Below are positions 13,701-31,435 of a DNA stretch of 64,000 nt, in pieces. The position numbers and the translations under genes were made by a program. The DNA lies in assembly GCA_031260565.1 (NCBI GenBank), contig JAISLH010000015.1, positions 452 through 64,451 on the forward strand, in the 5' to 3' direction. Each line of letters starts with the position of its first letter. The first letter of the stretch is position 1. This DNA comes from Bacteroidales bacterium (GTDB lineage Bacteria > Bacteroidota > Bacteroidia > Bacteroidales > P3). The notes below the pieces were generated by a model. That model searched no databases. It had not been told where the DNA came from and saw only the letters and a list, made by a program, of their open reading frames with translations.

Positions 13701-14670
13701 TAGCCTCACAAACAACGGTATTGAAAAAACTCCCGAAAGTCCTAATGTAGATGGTCTCTGGTATGCCTTGTCCAACCCTTATAGCGGTAATTTGTATGCT
13801 GCCGACTGGCTTCATGCTAATACTAACGTACAGGGGAATGTTATCTACACATTTAATTCCGTTGATTCTACATGGAACGTTTTGGATGGAAGCGAAGGCA
13901 CACAACGTGTCAAAATAGGTGAAGGCTTCTTTGTCGCAGGTCAGGGAGGGACGAGTGCAAGGCAAAAGTCATTCAGCTTCAAACAAAATATGGCAACCAA
14001 TGTTCCAACTGCTAAGAGCAATGTTGATATTAGCAGGATAAAACTGACAGCAACATCAAACTATATGAGCAAAGAGGCTGTCATAAAGATAAACCAAGAC
14101 GCTTCTAACGGCTTTGATAATTACGATGCCTATATGAAGTTTGGCACAAGCAAGAGAGCAGTTGAACCTTACTTTATGATAGATAATCGTGCTGTTGTGA
14201 TGAACTCTATAAGCGACCTGCCATATTCCGCTGCCTTAAATATGTCTGCATTGCAGAACAACAACGTTGATTTGAAGTTTGAGAACATTCCAAGCAACGT
14301 AAGAGTTATTTTCATAGACCTTAGCTTTGGTTCAATAGACACGATAGCCGAAAAGGAAGTAGTAAATATTGATGTAGTTGAGGGACAAAACGACAACAGA
14401 TTTGTTATTCTGTTAGAAAAAGTATCTAATAACATAGACACTCCAGCAGCAGCAGACCTCAACATCTGGGCATACAACAACCGTTTAACAATCAACGGCG
14501 AAGCTCTCACAGGGCTTGAAGTTTATAACACACTTGGGCAGCTTGTCTTTTCAACCAAGATGTCCGGCAACAGTTATTCTCAGACCTTAGCCCTTAATGC
14601 AGGTTCTTATATTGCTAAGGCTACGGCTAAGAATGGCAACAAAACAATAAAATTTATAATCAATAAATAA
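10768..14670 (+). CDS. GLUG-motif repeat surface protein with a T9SS type-A C-terminal domain
   Basis: It has a signal peptide and many GGLIG/GGLVG (GLUG) repeats. The C-terminus LEVYNTLGQLVF...GSYIAKATAKNGNKTIKFIINK matches the Por-secretion tail pattern. Confidence 0.8.
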   Translation: MNTKIKLKTIIVSLLMLILAMSSNFLSAQSTGSITNLSGGNGSQANPYLISNAQDLVDLSNFVLAADDDIHNCVGMYFKVTTDIDMKSIANFVPIGGRSKKNNTDDDDVARVFRGKFDGNNKVIKNLKITSSTNSNGLFGVVVTASNTTEIKNITLDSCKIVMNGVAGGHIALFSGALIGTMEAMPSSGCVVRNCHVTNSTIQVGSNAECIGGLIGSILVGNTIEGSNPNIIVDSCSVKYFYTLSSTTAADLFGGLIGEASCGVDITNCNVDHCVIDHGAGSIGGLIGRAEGGSAASYARKISNCHTFYNLIRGSGACVGGMIGNATSNLNIEDCSSSYDSVMGKGRTGGLIGKADTNVSIKRCYNTYSYVQDASNFGAGGLIGGAEAATVTIEDSYSSLSIVVGLNYAGGLIGDFNGGANSIKNCYAANKVIASGTGGNLTAYRGGLSGKIPSSTAVQNSYYISTWTSQSLSGQNTNATRGVSKTPDQMRDIAFVGTLNAGRTSNAVWFQDTALYVNGGYPILKYGRGQVGSTYQIWNVEDLRALSAMVQNGIPTAGSNFLLMADIIFPANDNSFIPIGGWADENTNDDAKAFSGNFAGNRFYISGADINKPNNDYVGLFGLVDGGRIEEVAFLKSNIAGKDYAGGLVGKLDSKAVVNRCFATGDVRGENYVGGLIGYIDGAATVAACYAKCVVEGIDYVGGFAGSAEKVYNSYCVPNVLCLSDASTNVGAFCGHSSNATSLFSQCYYNSNWTTQGGLTSNAYGTPKTKADMVNKAAFVTLLNTGIDYPAWRLDDSPWTRNGGYPILGYEPFVTDLCIIEDWQTIKVNTKTDYDNRPSTIIIEDGGSLVNNYTSGDFDNVTVEHKLYNEQYSFIGSAFGNITFGQYLGEDGSKTYQNIYGNYPASCLLFNYNSNMWWGDPDGYTYAGYNTNMDVANGYFTYILDPTYGTPSFHPSSVGKMVKQSANAGKLFNKDITFSLTNNGIEKTPESPNVDGLWYALSNPYSGNLYAADWLHANTNVQGNVIYTFNSVDSTWNVLDGSEGTQRVKIGEGFFVAGQGGTSARQKSFSFKQNMATNVPTAKSNVDISRIKLTATSNYMSKEAVIKINQDASNGFDNYDAYMKFGTSKRAVEPYFMIDNRAVVMNSISDLPYSAALNMSALQNNNVDLKFENIPSNVRVIFIDLSFGSIDTIAEKEVVNIDVVEGQNDNRFVILLEKVSNNIDTPAAADLNIWAYNNRLTINGEALTGLEVYNTLGQLVFSTKMSGNSYSQTLALNAGSYIAKATAKNGNKTIKFIINK

Positions 14671-14685
14671 TAAGGAGATGATAAA

Positions 14686-14889
14686 ATGAAAAAAATATTT
14701 GTAATAATAATGTGTATGGCTGTCTCAACTATAATATCGGCTCAACCTACGCCCGGCGGCAGACCGGGAGACGGAGGAGCAGGAGAACATGAAGGAGCGG
14801 AAGCACCTATAACAACGGCTACTTTGTTACTGCTTGGTTTGGGCGGAGCATACACAACTTTCAAAATGATGAAGCATAAAAAAGAATAG
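14686..14889 (+). CDS. Small secreted protein (67 aa) with a Gly/Pro/Glu-rich core and a C-terminal TM plus basic tail
   Basis: It has the signal peptide MKKIFVIIMCMAVSTIISAQ, an AGGAG 9 nt upstream of the ATG, and the C-terminus APITTATLLLLGLGGAYTTFKMMKHKKE. It starts 16 nt after the upstream stop. Confidence 0.45.
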   Translation: MKKIFVIIMCMAVSTIISAQPTPGGRPGDGGAGEHEGAEAPITTATLLLLGLGGAYTTFKMMKHKKE

Positions 14890-14927
14890 TTTCATAGTAT
14901 TTATAATTTATTAATGTTAGACAATGG

Positions 14928-14962
14928 ACGGAGGGGTAGTAAAATACCTCTTCGTTTTTTTT
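14928..14962 (+). terminator. Probable rho-independent terminator
   Basis: An imperfect hairpin acggaggggta/tacctcttcgt is followed by T8. Confidence 0.45.
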
Positions 14963-15005
14963 ATTAAGAAAAGGAGCAAAATTTTGGCAGTATCAAAAAA
15001 AGTAG

Positions 15006-15013
15006 TATATTTG
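15006..15013 (+). promoter_or_regulatory. -7 promoter box (TATATTTG) upstream of the G9 tract and 21-bp array
   Basis: An exact TAnnTTTG lies directly after the terminator. No long ORF follows for about 500 nt. Confidence 0.45.
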
Positions 15014-15111
15014 CACTCTCTAAAATGACACAAAAAGATATTAAATAAGCAGGAAAAATGAGCATCGCAGGCTTACAGAAACGCACCAAATTTACACTTT
15101 CTCTCTATAAT

Positions 15112-15120
15112 GGGGGGGGG
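15112..15120. repeat. Homopolymeric G9 tract
   Basis: Nine consecutive G lie inside a 30-codon ORF that starts at ATG 15058. Confidence 0.95.
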
Positions 15121-15254
15121 CAACGCCTTCATTACAAGCCTCTTACGTAGCGTCTATACACTCTAAAACGGCACTATTAAATTTCACTTCTCGCTTAATT
15201 CACAACATACAAAACTCACTTCATTTTCTATCTGAAAAGGTAGATTTTGTGTTG

Positions 15255-15485
15255 AATATTATAGTTTCCAAGTTAAACACTATAACTTTCGAGTTAAACA
15301 CTATAACTTTCGAGTTAAACACTATAACTTTCAAGCCAAACACTATAACTTTCAAGTTAAACACTGTAACTTTCAAGTTAAACACTATAACTTTCAAGCC
15401 AAACACTATAACTTTCAAGTTAAACACTATAACTTTCAAGTTAAACACTATAACTTTCAAGTTAAACACTATAACTTTCAAGCCA
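15255..15485. repeat. Tandem array, 21-bp unit AACACTATAACTTTCAAGTTA, 10 full units plus 1 degenerate leading unit
   Basis: Units start at 15276 and recur every 21 nt to 15485. Variants are gagtta, aagcca and ctgtaac. The leading unit 15255-15275 matches 16/21. Confidence 0.95.
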
Positions 15486-15524
15486 AAAGTTTTAATAATG
15501 AATAAATAAATAAGTAAGAACATT

Positions 15525-16199
15525 ATGCAAAGTGACTGGATTAAGTACAGAGAAGCAGATTTATTGCTGCAGGCAGGAGCTAATGAAAAGTATTTTATTT
15601 CGCTTGGTTCGCAATTTCCTTCAGCTGAGTTACAACGTTTTAGGGCAGCAGTAACAGCATTTAGGACGGCGTTCGCAAAAACATCAGACAAGGGCACATC
15701 AACGAGTGCTGATGTAAAAGCTAAAAATGATGCAAAAAAAGCGTTAATCGCTATAATGCGAGAGTTTTACAACAGGTATGTTATCGGCAGTCCGACAATG
15801 ACAAACGAGCAGCGGGAAACGTATGAATACCCTATCCACGACACCGAGCCAACACCTGTGCCTGTGCCAAGAATTGCTCCAGATATGGATGTTGATTTTT
15901 CGCAAAGAGGCTCTCATTTGGTGTATTTTGGCGAGGAGAATAGCAAACACAAAATCGTTCGCGGGCTGCCGAAAGGTGCTCATGGTGTGGAAATTTATCG
16001 CCTCATTTCGCACGACTCATTGCCAATTATGCCTGAAATTGAGACTATGGAATTTGTTGGGTTGGCTTCCAAAAGCCCGAAAGAATTCTTATACAAGAGC
16101 AGTGAAACCGGTTCCAGAGTGTATTATGTGGTGAGATATTTCAATGATAGAGGGGAGTTTAGCTTGTGGTCTAAGGTGGTGATGGCGATTGTGAATTAA
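15525..16199 (+). CDS. Hypothetical protein (224 aa) whose C-terminal half looks FN3/Ig-like
   Basis: The ORF is clean and non-repetitive. A Pro-rich hinge EPTPVPVPRIAP is followed by a beta-rich segment ending VYYVVRYFNDRGEFSLWSKVV, typical of FN3 C-terminal strands. Confidence 0.55.
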   Translation: MQSDWIKYREADLLLQAGANEKYFISLGSQFPSAELQRFRAAVTAFRTAFAKTSDKGTSTSADVKAKNDAKKALIAIMREFYNRYVIGSPTMTNEQRETYEYPIHDTEPTPVPVPRIAPDMDVDFSQRGSHLVYFGEENSKHKIVRGLPKGAHGVEIYRLISHDSLPIMPEIETMEFVGLASKSPKEFLYKSSETGSRVYYVVRYFNDRGEFSLWSKVVMAIVN

Positions 16200-17243
16200 A
16201 TGGGAAGTAGCAAAATTAAAAAAACAGCTAAAAAAAGGTCTATAACTTTTTCTCCTAGCTGGACAATTGAGCAAAATTTACTTTGGGGAATATTAGTATG
16301 TTTAGCATCTATTACAATCTCTATTTTTGTTATACCTATATTGGCAGTAGATTCACCAACTATACAGACTATAAAGAAAAGCCAAGACAGTATTATTGTT
16401 ACCTTGGACAATATTAAAACGAATACAACTGAAATTAAAGCACACGAAGACAGAATAGCTGCAAGTACCACTGCTGTTGATACTGCTTTTTCAAAGCCAT
16501 TGATAATACTTGGTGGAGGCTCTGTGAAAAATTATATAGAGAGAAATTATCAACCAATATTGAATCCCAAGCTATACTCAATACTTCCTGCTCCTAGTGA
16601 ATTTGCTTGTGTAAGGCTTAAAGATGAGGATTTTATTAAGCTTCAGACAGGTAATATTGTTATTATGAGTTCTGGCTACGAACTGCACGATGCTTTTTTT
16701 GAGAAACCCAGAGAAAACTATAAATTTGCTAATATCGTAGAGGTTTTTCTTGGATATGATACGCTTTACATCAAAACAAATGTTAAGTCAATAATTGATA
16801 AATACAAAGAGCGTAAAATAGATAAAAAAGACCTTTTGAAATTACTAAAAGATAGCAAAGACGTAGTTATAACCTGTACCGAAAAAGGCAGTGGAACATA
16901 TAACGAATATAACAAACTTGTAGGTGGCGAAATAGAAGAAAAAATAAATTTATCTAACCCATATTTTAAGGCTATAGAGACTAGCAAACCAACCATTGTT
17001 CTTACTCGTAGTAATTACGACCCAGCCAAAGATAATAGTGATTTTGTGAATATATATATAATAGACACTAATTATTTAACCTCTGGATTATATTTATATA
17101 TACCATTGAATGCAAATGAAAAAGATACGACGTTAATAATGCCTAGTATGATAAAGGGGCTTATAAGGCATTTTAAACCAAAATTCCCTTTGAAGATACC
17201 ACGTAATAGTGCAATTATAATTAAGGATACTAGTGGTAAGTAA
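16200..17243 (+). CDS. Membrane-anchored hypothetical protein (347 aa) with a weak PstS/PBP-type-2-like periplasmic-binding fold
   Basis: The start abuts the upstream stop (TAAATG). It has one TM segment (LLWGILVCLASITISIFVIPILAV) and a coiled-coil-like stretch. ILGGGSVKNY, IVIMSSGYELHD and KGSGTYNEY resemble PBP_like_2 motifs. Confidence 0.5.
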   Translation: MGSSKIKKTAKKRSITFSPSWTIEQNLLWGILVCLASITISIFVIPILAVDSPTIQTIKKSQDSIIVTLDNIKTNTTEIKAHEDRIAASTTAVDTAFSKPLIILGGGSVKNYIERNYQPILNPKLYSILPAPSEFACVRLKDEDFIKLQTGNIVIMSSGYELHDAFFEKPRENYKFANIVEVFLGYDTLYIKTNVKSIIDKYKERKIDKKDLLKLLKDSKDVVITCTEKGSGTYNEYNKLVGGEIEEKINLSNPYFKAIETSKPTIVLTRSNYDPAKDNSDFVNIYIIDTNYLTSGLYLYIPLNANEKDTTLIMPSMIKGLIRHFKPKFPLKIPRNSAIIIKDTSGK

Positions 17244-17323
17244 ATAAGAAGAGGTTTCTAAAGCAAAAGCCCGCTAATGATTGATGTTGTCGGGTTTTTT
17301 GCTTACATATAAGAGAAAATTTG

Positions 17324-17331
17324 TACCTTTG
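17324..17331 (+). promoter_or_regulatory. -7 promoter box (TACCTTTG)
   Basis: TAnnTTTG lies 33 nt upstream of the GTG at 17364. Confidence 0.45.
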
Positions 17332-17363
17332 CTACTTCATTAAAACGCATAAAAGGACAACAA

Positions 17364-18494
17364 GTGGTACTGTTATATCTTATAGAAAAGGAGTTCAAAC
17401 AAACGTTTCGCAATAAGTTTATACCAAAACTTATTGTTATCTTTCCTTTTATTGCCTTAATTCTGCTGCCTTTTGCCGCCAATATGGAGATTAAGAACGT
17501 GAATATAGTCGTAGTGGATAACGACAAAAGCAGCTTCTCAGGGCAACTAATTCAAAAACTTGACGCTAATAAATCCATTACTCTGTTTGCTCTCTGCCCT
17601 ACCTATTTGCAAGCCTTTGACCTTGTAGAAAAAGACAGGGCGGATGTGATTGTGGTCTTAAACAGGAATATGGAAAAGGACATCAGCATTGCTATGACTA
17701 CCAAAGAAGATTTAACAGGCGGCACGGCTTCGTCAAAAATCCTTGTTGCTACCAATGCTGTCAATGCTGTCAAAGGGACTTTGGGGGCAATGTATGTTAT
17801 GAATATTATTGCTGACTTTGCTGCTGATAAAGCCGCCATTGCAGGAAACACAACGCCGTTGGAAATACGCCCTTCCTATGCTTTCAATGAACGGTTAGAG
17901 TATAAATATTTTATGGTGCCGGCTTTGATGGTTATGATACTGACTGTGCTTTGCGGCTTCCTGCCTGCACTAAACATTGTCGGAGAGAAAGAAAACGGGA
18001 ACATAGAGCAAATGAACGTTACACCCGTTAGACGGCTTACTTTTATTGCTTCAAAGCTCATACCCTACTGGATAATTGGAACGTTGGTTATTTCAATAGG
18101 GTTTTTCGTTGCTTGGATTATTTATGGCATTACTCCTGTGGGTAGCTTTTTGACTATTTACTTCTTTGCTTGGCTGTTCATTTTTGCCGTTTCTGGTATG
18201 GGGTTACTTATCTCCAATTACTTTGAGACCTATCAGCAAGCTATGTTTATTATGTTCTTTCTTCTTATGATATTGCTTTTGATGAGTGGGTTATTTACTC
18301 CTTTTGCGTCAATGCCTCCGTGGGCACAATCTATCGGAAGGCTTTCTCCGCTGAAGTATTTCATAGAAACGATGCGTGCAGTCTATCTAAAGGGGAGCAA
18401 AATACCTGACCTAATCCCACAGCTGCAATCACTGATTACCATCGCATTTGTACTTAACACTTGGGCTATATTCTCCTACCGCAAGAAGAAATAA
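17364..18494 (+). CDS. ABC-2 type transporter permease
   Basis: It has the YbhS/YbhR-like architecture: an N-terminal TM segment, a large extracytoplasmic loop, then 5 TM segments. No ATPase gene is adjacent. Confidence 0.7.
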   Translation: MVLLYLIEKEFKQTFRNKFIPKLIVIFPFIALILLPFAANMEIKNVNIVVVDNDKSSFSGQLIQKLDANKSITLFALCPTYLQAFDLVEKDRADVIVVLNRNMEKDISIAMTTKEDLTGGTASSKILVATNAVNAVKGTLGAMYVMNIIADFAADKAAIAGNTTPLEIRPSYAFNERLEYKYFMVPALMVMILTVLCGFLPALNIVGEKENGNIEQMNVTPVRRLTFIASKLIPYWIIGTLVISIGFFVAWIIYGITPVGSFLTIYFFAWLFIFAVSGMGLLISNYFETYQQAMFIMFFLLMILLLMSGLFTPFASMPPWAQSIGRLSPLKYFIETMRAVYLKGSKIPDLIPQLQSLITIAFVLNTWAIFSYRKKK

Positions 18495-29449: not shown

Positions 29450-31435
29450 GTGATAAAGCAGGAAGATAAAGAGAGGATTCTTCAGGCGACAGATATAGTT
29501 GATGTTGTCAGTCAATTCGTTCAGTTAAGGCGGAGAGGCGTTAATCACATTGGCTTATGCCCTTTTCATAATGAGAAGACACCTTCTTTCAATGTCAATT
29601 CAGCACGAGGAATCTTCAAGTGCTTTGGCTGTGGTGAAGGCGGGGATGCAGTAACCTTTCTGATGAAGCACGAACATTTCACTTACCCTGAAGCATTGAA
29701 GTGGCTGGCTAATCGTTATGGGATACCGATTGAAGAAGAACAACAGACACCTGAGGCCATTGCTAATCAGAGTGAAAGAGAAGCCTTGTTTGCTGCGAAC
29801 GAATGCGCACAGAAATACTTTCATCAAACACTGCTAAATGACCAAAATGGGCAAGCCATAGGCTTGAGTTACTTCCGTGAACGAGAGATAAATCAGGAGT
29901 CAATCAAGCAATGGGGACTTGGTTATTGCAAAGATAGCTGGACAGATTTCACAGACTATGCCACAAAGCAAGGTTATAGTGTTGAGATGCTTGTAAAGGC
30001 TGGGCTAACTGTTGAAAAGGAGGGAACGGATAAGCGTTATGATAGATTTAGGGGACGAGTTATGTTTCCAATCTATTCGGTTAGTGGTCGCCCTATTGGT
30101 TTCACGGGTAGGATTCTAACATCTGACAAGACAAAGGCTAAATATGTCAATAGTCCTGAAAGTCTTATTTACTCCAAAGGGAAGGTTCTTTTCGGTCTTC
30201 ATTTGGCTAAAAATCATATTGCAAAAGAAGACCGCTGTTATTTGGTGGAAGGCAATATGGATGCAGTGATGATGAGTCAGCAAGGAGTGAAAAACGTTGT
30301 GGCAACCAGCGGAACGGCTTTGACGGAAGACCAGATAAGGCTCTTGAAACGCTATAGCTCCAATGTAACTATTCTTTATGATGGGGACGCTGCAGGTATT
30401 CACGCTGCCTTTCGGGCGATAGATATGTTTCTATCGGCAGGCTTAAAGGTTAAAATAGTGCTTTTCCCTGATGGAGACGACCCTGATTCTTTTGCAAGAA
30501 AGAATACTCAGGCGGAATTTCAGCGTTACATAACAGAAGAGGCACACGATTTCATTATCTTCAAGACTAATTTACTGCTTGCCGATGCACAAGATGACCC
30601 TATCAAACGGGCGGCTCTTGTGAAGGAAATCCTTGTGTCAATTAGTAAGATACCCGACACCATAGAGCGAACGGCATATATCCAGCAATGCTCCTCTTTG
30701 TTGAAGATGAAGGAAGATATGCTGACAAAGGAGTTGGCAAAAATACTCCGCACGAACATCTTAAAACAACATTCTTCAGAAGAACAACAGGCAACGGAGC
30801 AATCAAATACATATTCACCCGAACCTTTTTTTTCAACACGGCAACAGATTGAAGACCCTTACCCTGACGACAATCAGGAGAGAGGTATCATTAAACTACT
30901 TCTTAATTATAGCGATCGCTCCACGCGACAAGCGGTGATAATAGACGAACAAGGCACAATAGAAACACAGACTTTTATGATTGTGGCTTATGTCATCTCC
31001 GACTTGAAAAACGAAAGCATAGCATTTGATAACCCTATATGGCAGGGAATTTTGGATATATTTTATCAATACATTCAAAGCAACAATGCCTTACCTGACA
31101 TAAGCCTTTTCACATCATCAGACAATGAAACACTACGCAAAGAAACGGCATCTCTTTTATTAGAAGAAGAAAAATATAGTATCAGTCCGCTCTGGCAGGA
31201 TAAATCTGAATTAAAAACACTCGACCGCTTCAATCCAGATGTCGTAGATGACCACGTAAAGCAGACATTATTATATCTAAAATGGCATAAGTTAGAACAA
31301 AGACAAACCCAAATTCTTTCCCAATTAAAGCATACCGACAGCCAAGAGTCTATGCAAGCTCTGCTCGGCGAAGTGAAAACTATCAACAGCGGAATACAGA
31401 TTATCCGCAAGGAACTTCATAATATAGCCAAGTAG
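29450..31435 (+). CDS. dnaG: DNA primase
   Basis: It has the zinc finger CPFHNEKTPSFNV...FKCFGCGEGGD and a TOPRIM region (EGNMD...LYDGDAAG). The start is GTG. Confidence 0.9.
   Translation: MIKQEDKERILQATDIVDVVSQFVQLRRRGVNHIGLCPFHNEKTPSFNVNSARGIFKCFGCGEGGDAVTFLMKHEHFTYPEALKWLANRYGIPIEEEQQTPEAIANQSEREALFAANECAQKYFHQTLLNDQNGQAIGLSYFREREINQESIKQWGLGYCKDSWTDFTDYATKQGYSVEMLVKAGLTVEKEGTDKRYDRFRGRVMFPIYSVSGRPIGFTGRILTSDKTKAKYVNSPESLIYSKGKVLFGLHLAKNHIAKEDRCYLVEGNMDAVMMSQQGVKNVVATSGTALTEDQIRLLKRYSSNVTILYDGDAAGIHAAFRAIDMFLSAGLKVKIVLFPDGDDPDSFARKNTQAEFQRYITEEAHDFIIFKTNLLLADAQDDPIKRAALVKEILVSISKIPDTIERTAYIQQCSSLLKMKEDMLTKELAKILRTNILKQHSSEEQQATEQSNTYSPEPFFSTRQQIEDPYPDDNQERGIIKLLLNYSDRSTRQAVIIDEQGTIETQTFMIVAYVISDLKNESIAFDNPIWQGILDIFYQYIQSNNALPDISLFTSSDNETLRKETASLLLEEEKYSISPLWQDKSELKTLDRFNPDVVDDHVKQTLLYLKWHKLEQRQTQILSQLKHTDSQESMQALLGEVKTINSGIQIIRKELHNIAK

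Follow-up and report, generated by a model that had tools for sequence, protein, structure and literature searches.

Bacteroidales are known mainly for switches that rest on invertible promoters, and contingency loci with poly-G or poly-C homopolymers are a familiar feature of surface genes in Neisseria, Campylobacter, Helicobacter and Haemophilus. Two described systems come closest to the locus analysed here. In the pil1 locus of S. gallolyticus, which shows leader-peptide phase variation with attenuation, a GCAGA repeat within a leader-peptide ORF changes the length over which ribosomes read, giving stochastic expression of a surface operon; the target is reported to be a stem-loop terminator, and the leader peptide sequence is not the effector (Danne et al. 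2014, PMC3894217). At hmw1A and hmw2A of H. influenzae, 7-bp repeats in the 5'-UTR, which are transcribed with the leader, grade adhesin expression by their number; the repeats are reported to be untranslated and to act through a long hairpin that RNase III cleaves (Rapun-Araiz et al. 2025, PMC12721329).

The DNA analysed here, referred to as the window, is a 64,000-nucleotide stretch of a Bacteroidales genome (contig C94 of a 2.05-Mb genome in 133 contigs) in which T9SS-tailed proteins and Bacteroidetes-type promoters are present. An array of 21-nt units in this window lies within the following set of features, whose left border is formed by a predicted intrinsic terminator.

14926-14957, plus strand: intrinsic terminator, a hairpin followed by a T run, which ends the pair of a gene for a 1300-aa T9SS-tailed protein and a 67-aa ORF
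14984-15013, plus strand: predicted Bacteroidetes-type promoter from sequence and pattern scan, with TTTG/TTGGCA at about -33 and TATATTTG (TAnnTTTG) at -7
15058-15150, plus strand: leader ORF, first frame as assembled, by translation (MSIAGLQKRTKFTLSLYNGGGQRLHYKPLT; stop TAG at 15148-15150)
15112-15120, plus strand: G9 homopolymer in the leader ORF, 54 nt into the ORF, a candidate slippage switch
15123-15509, plus strand: leader ORF, second frame, by translation, with 128 stop-free codons through the array (stop TAA at 15507-15509)
15183-15214, plus strand: 32-nt block TTCACTTCTCGCTTAATTCACAACATACAAAA, identical in the leader of the paralogous locus C72, with flanks about 75-80% identical by pairwise alignment
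15255-15485, plus strand: the flagged array, one degenerate and ten clean 21-nt units of seven codons each, by Tandem Repeats Finder and 21-mer cutting
15486-15524, plus strand: AT-rich spacer with stops in all frames, in which the leader ORF ends
15525-16199, plus strand: P0001, a 224-aa family member with N-terminal helices, a Pro-rich linker and an FN3-like C-terminal sandwich, without a signal peptide
16200-17243, plus strand: P0002, a 347-aa partner with an N-terminal membrane anchor, whose gene abuts that of P0001 and is unique in the genome
17364-18494, plus strand: ABC-2 permease no. 2, behind the window cassette; its partner, permease no. 1, is on contig C109

Ahead of the terminator, the 67-aa ORF (14686-14889) lies directly 3' of the T9SS protein gene. 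Its middle part is rich in Gly and Pro, and at its C-terminus basic residues come after a hydrophobic segment (…TATLLLLGLGGAYTTFKMMKHKKE), an arrangement that resembles a sorting or anchor signal; the ORF gave no family match.

Compared with the two described systems, this locus shares with hmw a tandem array placed between the promoter, here a predicted one (14984-15013), and the start codon of the operon (ATG 15525), and it shares with pil1 a mutable simple-sequence repeat inside an upstream leader ORF, here the G9 tract, whose slippage we infer from the sequence. It also differs from both. Where pil1 has its 5-nt frame-shifting GCAGA repeat, the frame is shifted here by a poly-G tract; the leader ORFs span 80-190 codons and contain an array of seven-codon units; the module exists in many copies; and the host belongs to Bacteroidales. 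A terminator scan of 14600-17500 returned the terminator of the upstream gene (14926-14957) alone and nothing in the leader or the array, so that, unlike pil1, the window leader holds no premature intrinsic terminator. Unlike hmw, the 21-nt units lie inside an ORF, only a minority of the units are self-complementary, and local helices of 6 bp take the place of the long hairpin. Because the pil1 terminator and the hmw hairpin are missing, the module would work like these systems but is a member of neither. With the classical homopolymer loci it shares long sense-strand G tracts concentrated in one locus class, of which roughly one third are in frame and two thirds out of frame, whereas the tract lies here in a separate upstream ORF and not in the structural gene.

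We assign a probability of about 0.55 to the reading that the array forms the repetitive centre of a leader ORF which is translated and is switched by slippage of its G tract. In the module as predicted, the promoter is followed by an ATG, some 18 codons, the poly-G tract, some 45 codons, the array of seven-codon units, a stop, the FN3-like gene, and a variable, mostly secreted or membrane partner, and across the modules the leader ORF stops 1-16 nt before the start of the family gene. The recurrence of the module, the continuity of the ORF, the exclusive placement of the poly-G tracts, their mixed frame states and the leader stop adjoining the downstream start can all be read from the DNA as assembled.

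An earlier note on this DNA had described a head-to-tail array of 10-11 units of 21 bp with only three variant types and an inverted motif in about half of the units. Tandem Repeats Finder placed 10.2 copies of a 21-nt period at 15269-15482, with 93% matches, without indels and with a score of 379. Cutting the DNA into 21-mers from 15255 gave a degenerate first unit with five mismatches and then ten clean units (AACACTATAACTTTCAAGTTA four times, a form ending in AAGCCA three times, a form ending in TTCGAGTTA twice, and a form beginning with AACACTGTA once), so that the array at 15255-15485 is real and the three variant types are borne out; the inverted motif AACTT-TC-AAGTT was counted in 5 of the 11 units. 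Further claims of the note were confirmed as well: the TAnnTTTG box at 15006-15013 reads TATATTTG, the distance of about 40 nt between the array and ATG 15525 measures 39 nt, and three of the six frames have no stop over the length of the array, two of them in sense and one in antisense orientation. With up to three mismatches, the window unit occurs 36 times in the genome, versus one occurrence of a reversed control pattern. The window array is far beyond chance.

The leader of the window is split into two frames as assembled. The second frame is +1 relative to that of ATG 15058, and its product reads TPSLQASY, followed later by ten copies of LNTITFK and, at the end, KVLIMNK; joining the two frames would need a G10 or a G7 tract. 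This second frame can be aligned with the in-frame leaders of C72 and C39. In the C72 paralogue, the tract has been lost, the N-terminus is shared (MSITGLQKRTKFTLPPYN...), and a single intact ORF of 129 aa results. The LNTITFK frame is the continuation of the leader ORF that starts at ATG 15058 and is out of frame because of the G9 tract; we infer that the window leader, being out of frame, reads as OFF. The leader stop TAA is 15 nt 5' of the P0001 ATG, and the spacer of the C97 module is 98% identical to the window spacer (15486-15524). The 32-nt leader block, of which a near-copy occurs in the metagenome locus L034, may be an RNA or DNA element.

The gene behind the window array belongs to a large family. 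In the AF2 model of P0001 (pLDDT 88.8), three helices at the N-terminus are joined by a Pro-rich linker to a sandwich of FN3-like fold, and fold searches with this model gave generic FN3 domains alone. Neither P0001 nor P0002 had a match in Pfam, NCBIfam, PHROGs, PADLOC or PDB sequences. About 16 matches to P0001 are present in the window genome, and the family is expanded throughout the four species of the genus (16, 12, 7 and 19 matches); it is rare in other genera of the order, and a 300-genome sample of the phylum contained no member at E <= 1e-10. A profile search of public data retrieved 6,471 representative clusters, 1,402 of them at E <= 1e-30. The gene 3' of the family gene is different at each locus, and in most cases its product has a signal peptide, is lipoprotein-like or is a very large surface protein; a counterpart of P0002 was absent from the three congeners searched.

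Every paralogue with upstream sequence shows the same order, namely promoter, leader of 10-250 nt, 21-nt array, AT-rich spacer of about 40 nt and ATG. The earlier note had called the window promoter an orphan and the genes behind it an uncharacterised two-gene cassette; the promoter is no orphan, as the same promoter block recurs at paralogous modules, and the cassette belongs to a module that is present in many copies. Almost every locus has a unit sequence of its own (for example GAAAGAACACTTTCCAAGTCA, TAAAGTACATGTACTCCAACT, GAAATCAACTTAGTTTCCGAA and CGCAGGTTCGGAAATGTTCCC). The exact window unit was found neither in 40 relatives nor in the metagenome contig collection. An array of period 21 or 42 lies within 300 nt 5' of the family gene in 32 of the 35 evaluable upstream regions, which came from four congeneric species, one or two other genera (one of them in the same family) and three metagenome contigs. 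At least four units are present in 27 of these 35 regions, and no other period occurs among the arrays. Metagenome scans for the window locus found no copies, and the scan with the conserved leader block gave chance matches without a family gene. The association is far above the base rate, because the genome holds about 61 arrays of such size. In one of these metagenome contigs, of 65% GC, GTAGCCCGAGGGGCTGAAATA is repeated 8.4 times before a protein about 30% identical to P0001, but three other high-GC family loci (two of them copies of one gene) have no array; the link is thus frequent and not universal in distant lineages. Two array-less distant members on metagenome contigs of about 65% GC (L040 and L043) have in common a conserved upstream segment with a T-arm-like GGGGTTCGACTCC motif at its end and no Rfam match.

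Whole-genome analysis by Tandem Repeats Finder gave 347 arrays, 171 of period 21 and 89 of period 22. Three dispersed families of 22-bp arrays were seen, two with the cores GATGTACATC and GGTATATACC and a third with AAAGAATTTTTTCTTTCAGTTA. The dispersed palindromic 22-bp arrays resemble the 21-nt class in their period, their short palindromic cores and their intergenic position; in contrast to it, they cannot keep a reading frame, one core (GATGTACATC) recurs at dozens of sites, and they are not tied to the FN3-like family, whereas the 21-nt class has locus-specific units and a fixed place before family genes. At the C52 module, a second array of about 42 bp x 4.8 (C52:12928-13127) lies upstream of the promoter, and the 21-nt array begins almost at the predicted transcription start.

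The poly-G tracts are confined to the leaders. Runs of at least nine G or C occur seven times in the 2.05-Mb genome (C1 G12, C39 G11, C88 G9, C94 G9, C108 G14, C109 G15 and C120 G9), all of them inside leaders and with G on the sense strand. Each of the seven is entered by an ATG ORF 54-76 nt after its start, and a long open frame exits. Among ten leaders of the genus with tracts of G7-G14, four are in frame and six out of frame, with all tract lengths being consensus calls from the assembly, in the window genome one of 133 contigs; this ratio is close to the one third expected of a slippage switch. One of the seven tracts stands in a different setting: at C120:36260-37330, a leader and promoter of the same type with a G9 tract occur without a 21-nt array or a family gene, and the leader ORF (about 85 aa, in frame) stops 1 nt before the ATG of an outer-membrane beta-barrel-like gene. 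Contig C39 begins (positions 1-82) with runs of C16, C54 and G11, probably a sequencing or assembly artefact seeded at the leader poly-G.

Is the leader frame coding? The arrays by themselves do not separate the strands, and in this they stand against the leader-ORF switch: stop-free frames within arrays number 38 of 78 in sense versus 37 of 78 in antisense orientation, and ATG ORFs that span the array were found in 19 of 26 versus 14 of 26 cases, a difference that is not significant. The strands part outside the array. The array-open frame extends stop-free towards the promoter over a median of 53 codons in sense versus 17 in antisense orientation (Mann-Whitney p = 3e-5), the random expectation at the GC content of the genome being about 15 codons. 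At C1 and C108, where the arrays are degenerate, a single ATG ORF of 161 and 137 aa, respectively, crosses both the G tract and the array and stops 3 nt short of the family gene, while the other frames are filled with stops; since these arrays are degenerate, the openness is not inherited from one unit. With a score of 0.017, the codon usage of the non-repeat parts of the leader ORFs lies between that of real genes (0.146) and that of spurious ORFs (-0.139; p = 9e-7 for the leaders versus the spurious ORFs), and the intact leader ORFs of C1, C9 and C108 score 0.175, 0.206 and 0.075. In some database representatives of the family, heptads are fused in frame upstream of the family domain (for example, ten copies of LEAFPQT).

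The substitution patterns of units and paralogues carry no signal of selection on the leader peptide. Differences between units fall on the three codon positions 78/77/93 times, with a synonymous to non-synonymous ratio of 67:181, and differences between paralogous leaders 11/11/10 times. Homology and Pfam searches with the leader ORF products were empty, and an AF2 model was uninformative (pLDDT 40), with the repeats drawn as helices. In our reading, a frame that appears to be kept open and translated, while the peptide sequence is not conserved, has the pattern of a regulatory leader ORF; the sequence of the peptide seems unimportant. Several observations weigh against the switch nevertheless, beginning with the even distribution over codon positions, the 67:181 ratio and the lack of homologues, domains or a confident model for the leader products. 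Moreover, the C52 and L033 modules have no open sense frame and the C97 module lacks an ATG or promoter, which leaves these modules without a usable ORF; arrays of the same units stand outside any ORF on C25, C75 and C40; the stretch from the early stop to the family gene contains no terminator-like site; the AT-rich spacer could permit independent initiation; and period 21 is also common in clearly non-coding arrays of the genome.

Part of these data would also be explained if the array acted as a non-coding element in cis, either as a phased multi-site platform or curved DNA for a nucleoid or HU-like protein or as a structured 5'-UTR in which the number of repeats tunes mRNA processing or stability, as at hmw of H. 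influenzae; the open frame would then merely follow from a short unit being free of stops by chance. We regard this as possible, although on the unlikely side. The self-complementarity of the window unit exceeds that of 98% of its shuffled versions (z = -2.1), but among 22 related arrays such an excess is found in 7 and absent from 15; the phased palindromes spaced by two helical turns that the earlier note described are thus not a general property, and phased palindromes are rejected as the common principle. The minimum-free-energy fold of the sense RNA 15230-15530 has z = -2.2, but it consists of 6-bp local helices alone, with no long hairpin, and an Rfam search of 14000-18000 and of six related loci returned sub-threshold chance hits alone. 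The abundance of non-coding 21- and 22-bp arrays (171 + 89 of 347), the solo arrays outside ORFs, the missing codon-position signal, the equal frequency of open frames on both strands and the perfect conservation of the 32-nt leader block all accord with a cis element. On the other hand, no motif is common to the units of different loci, and therefore one binding protein cannot read all of them; near-identical family proteins (P0003 and P0004; C72 and C9) are preceded by unrelated units; and the long sense ORF upstream, the ORFs through degenerate arrays and the poly-G within the ORF would be left unexplained. Three more specific candidates were rejected: an iteron or operator array for one DNA-binding protein, given the lack of a motif shared across loci; the idea that the FN3-like protein recognises its own array by sequence, which is unlikely in view of the near-identical paralogues with unrelated units; and a CRISPR array, as the units are head-to-tail without spacers. 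It is far less probable still that the leader ORF encodes a genuine small heptad-repeat protein which acts with the FN3-like and partner proteins and whose divergence reflects diversifying selection. Such a protein would fit the long intact ORFs with gene-like codon usage at C1, C9 and C108, the many heptads with hydrophobic residues spaced 3-4 apart, the helices drawn by AF2 and the in-frame fusions in database representatives, but the substitution patterns equal the neutral expectation, the heptads are heterogeneous and several contain Pro or Gly, no homologues or domains were found for a product modelled at pLDDT 40, and about half of the G-tract copies are out of frame. A functional coiled-coil heptad protein is unsupported, because the peptide shows no purifying selection. 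The earlier note had raised a regulatory or 5'-UTR repeat, a copy-number contingency locus and part of a heptad-repeat peptide; a mixture of the regulatory repeat and the heptad-repeat peptide is favoured.

A further explanation holds that the array is mainly a recombination substrate, in which dispersed patches of same-unit homology allow a shufflon-like capture of promoters by homologous recombination, with promoter-leader modules and the genes behind them being swapped or placed between the genes of operons, and any effect on translation is secondary. Arrays of the window unit (up to three mismatches) occur at six other places (C35, C39, C40, C46, C73 and C97), which puts this unit family at no fewer than seven loci, and other units occur as pairs (C9/C25, C72/C25 and C60/C75). 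Solo arrays with the same units lie outside ORFs and between unrelated genes on C25, C75 and C40, their neighbours being genes for a flippase-like membrane protein and an aminotransferase-like protein, genes for an acetyltransferase-like protein and an epimerase, and a position 3' of uvrA; one solo array is flanked on either side by about 40 nt that also flank its module counterpart. Two solo 21-nt arrays lie between consecutive polysaccharide-biosynthesis genes (C25:17565-17787 and 29924-30048), with units that match those in the arrays preceding the C9 and C72 family genes. Two operons are split in a corresponding way. In a congener (G001), pstC and pstA are separated by a gap of 3 nt (L070 1480-1505), whereas in the window genome an array and a family gene come after pstC (C97:1-700), and a leader and an array precede pstA (C39:1-400), the arrangement expected from a crossover between a solo array and a module array. 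The two ABC-2 permease genes, 22 nt apart in another congener (G002), are split by modules in the window genome: permease no. 1 lies on C109, where a second promoter with a G15 leader comes after it, and permease no. 2 is at 17364-18494. These split pst and permease loci fit insertion or crossover between arrays. However, several contigs end in such arrays and the assembly is fragmented, so that mis-joins are possible at the split loci; in a short-read, metagenome-style assembly of 133 contigs, collapsed variants are possible too. Parental and recombinant forms were never seen together, and the fixed position of arrays before the family gene in distant lineages with unique units would go unexplained. 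We therefore doubt that recombination is the main role of the array and consider this unlikely. At the same time, the solo arrays outside ORFs and the operons split by modules point to a role in recombination as well.

Returning to the leader ORF switched by its G tract, we propose that slippage in the tract (with the G9 of the window as the OFF state) would decide whether ribosomes pass through the array to the edge of the family gene. Translation of the leader would then set the expression of the operon, through translational coupling or through protection of the leader from premature termination or decay; a Rho-dependent or a coupling mechanism is possible. With a period of 21 nt, the array could expand, contract and homogenise without breaking the frame, and the proposed frame-keeping by the 21-nt unit would explain why the period is fixed while the unit sequence diverges freely between loci. 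As the unit preserves the frame, the G tract is a likelier switch than the copy number of the array. The recurring module is thus probably a random on/off switch. A more speculative extension, which we hold to be doubtful, is that of a widespread three-part contingency module, in which a slippage-switched leader ORF with its array is joined to genes for a cytoplasmic protein of the FN3-like family and for a surface or secreted protein that varies. Here the arrays would both keep the frame open at any copy number and recombine promoter-leaders before other operons (pstA and the ABC-2 permease).

For annotation, these results mean that 21-nt arrays taken as intergenic may be translated, and assemblies that break or join at such arrays should be treated with care; an exchange of promoter-leaders mediated by the arrays, if true, would explain the fragmentation of the genome at these sites. 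The module also provides a handle on a large unannotated family, with 6,471 representative clusters and no Pfam model. If the exchange between arrays is true, it would be a simple bacterial way to rewire expression, and a double role of the array, if true, would be the homologous-recombination counterpart of the invertase-driven shufflons of Bacteroides. A slippage switch in a long upstream frame, if true, would give Bacteroidales a second route to heterogeneity beside invertible promoters.
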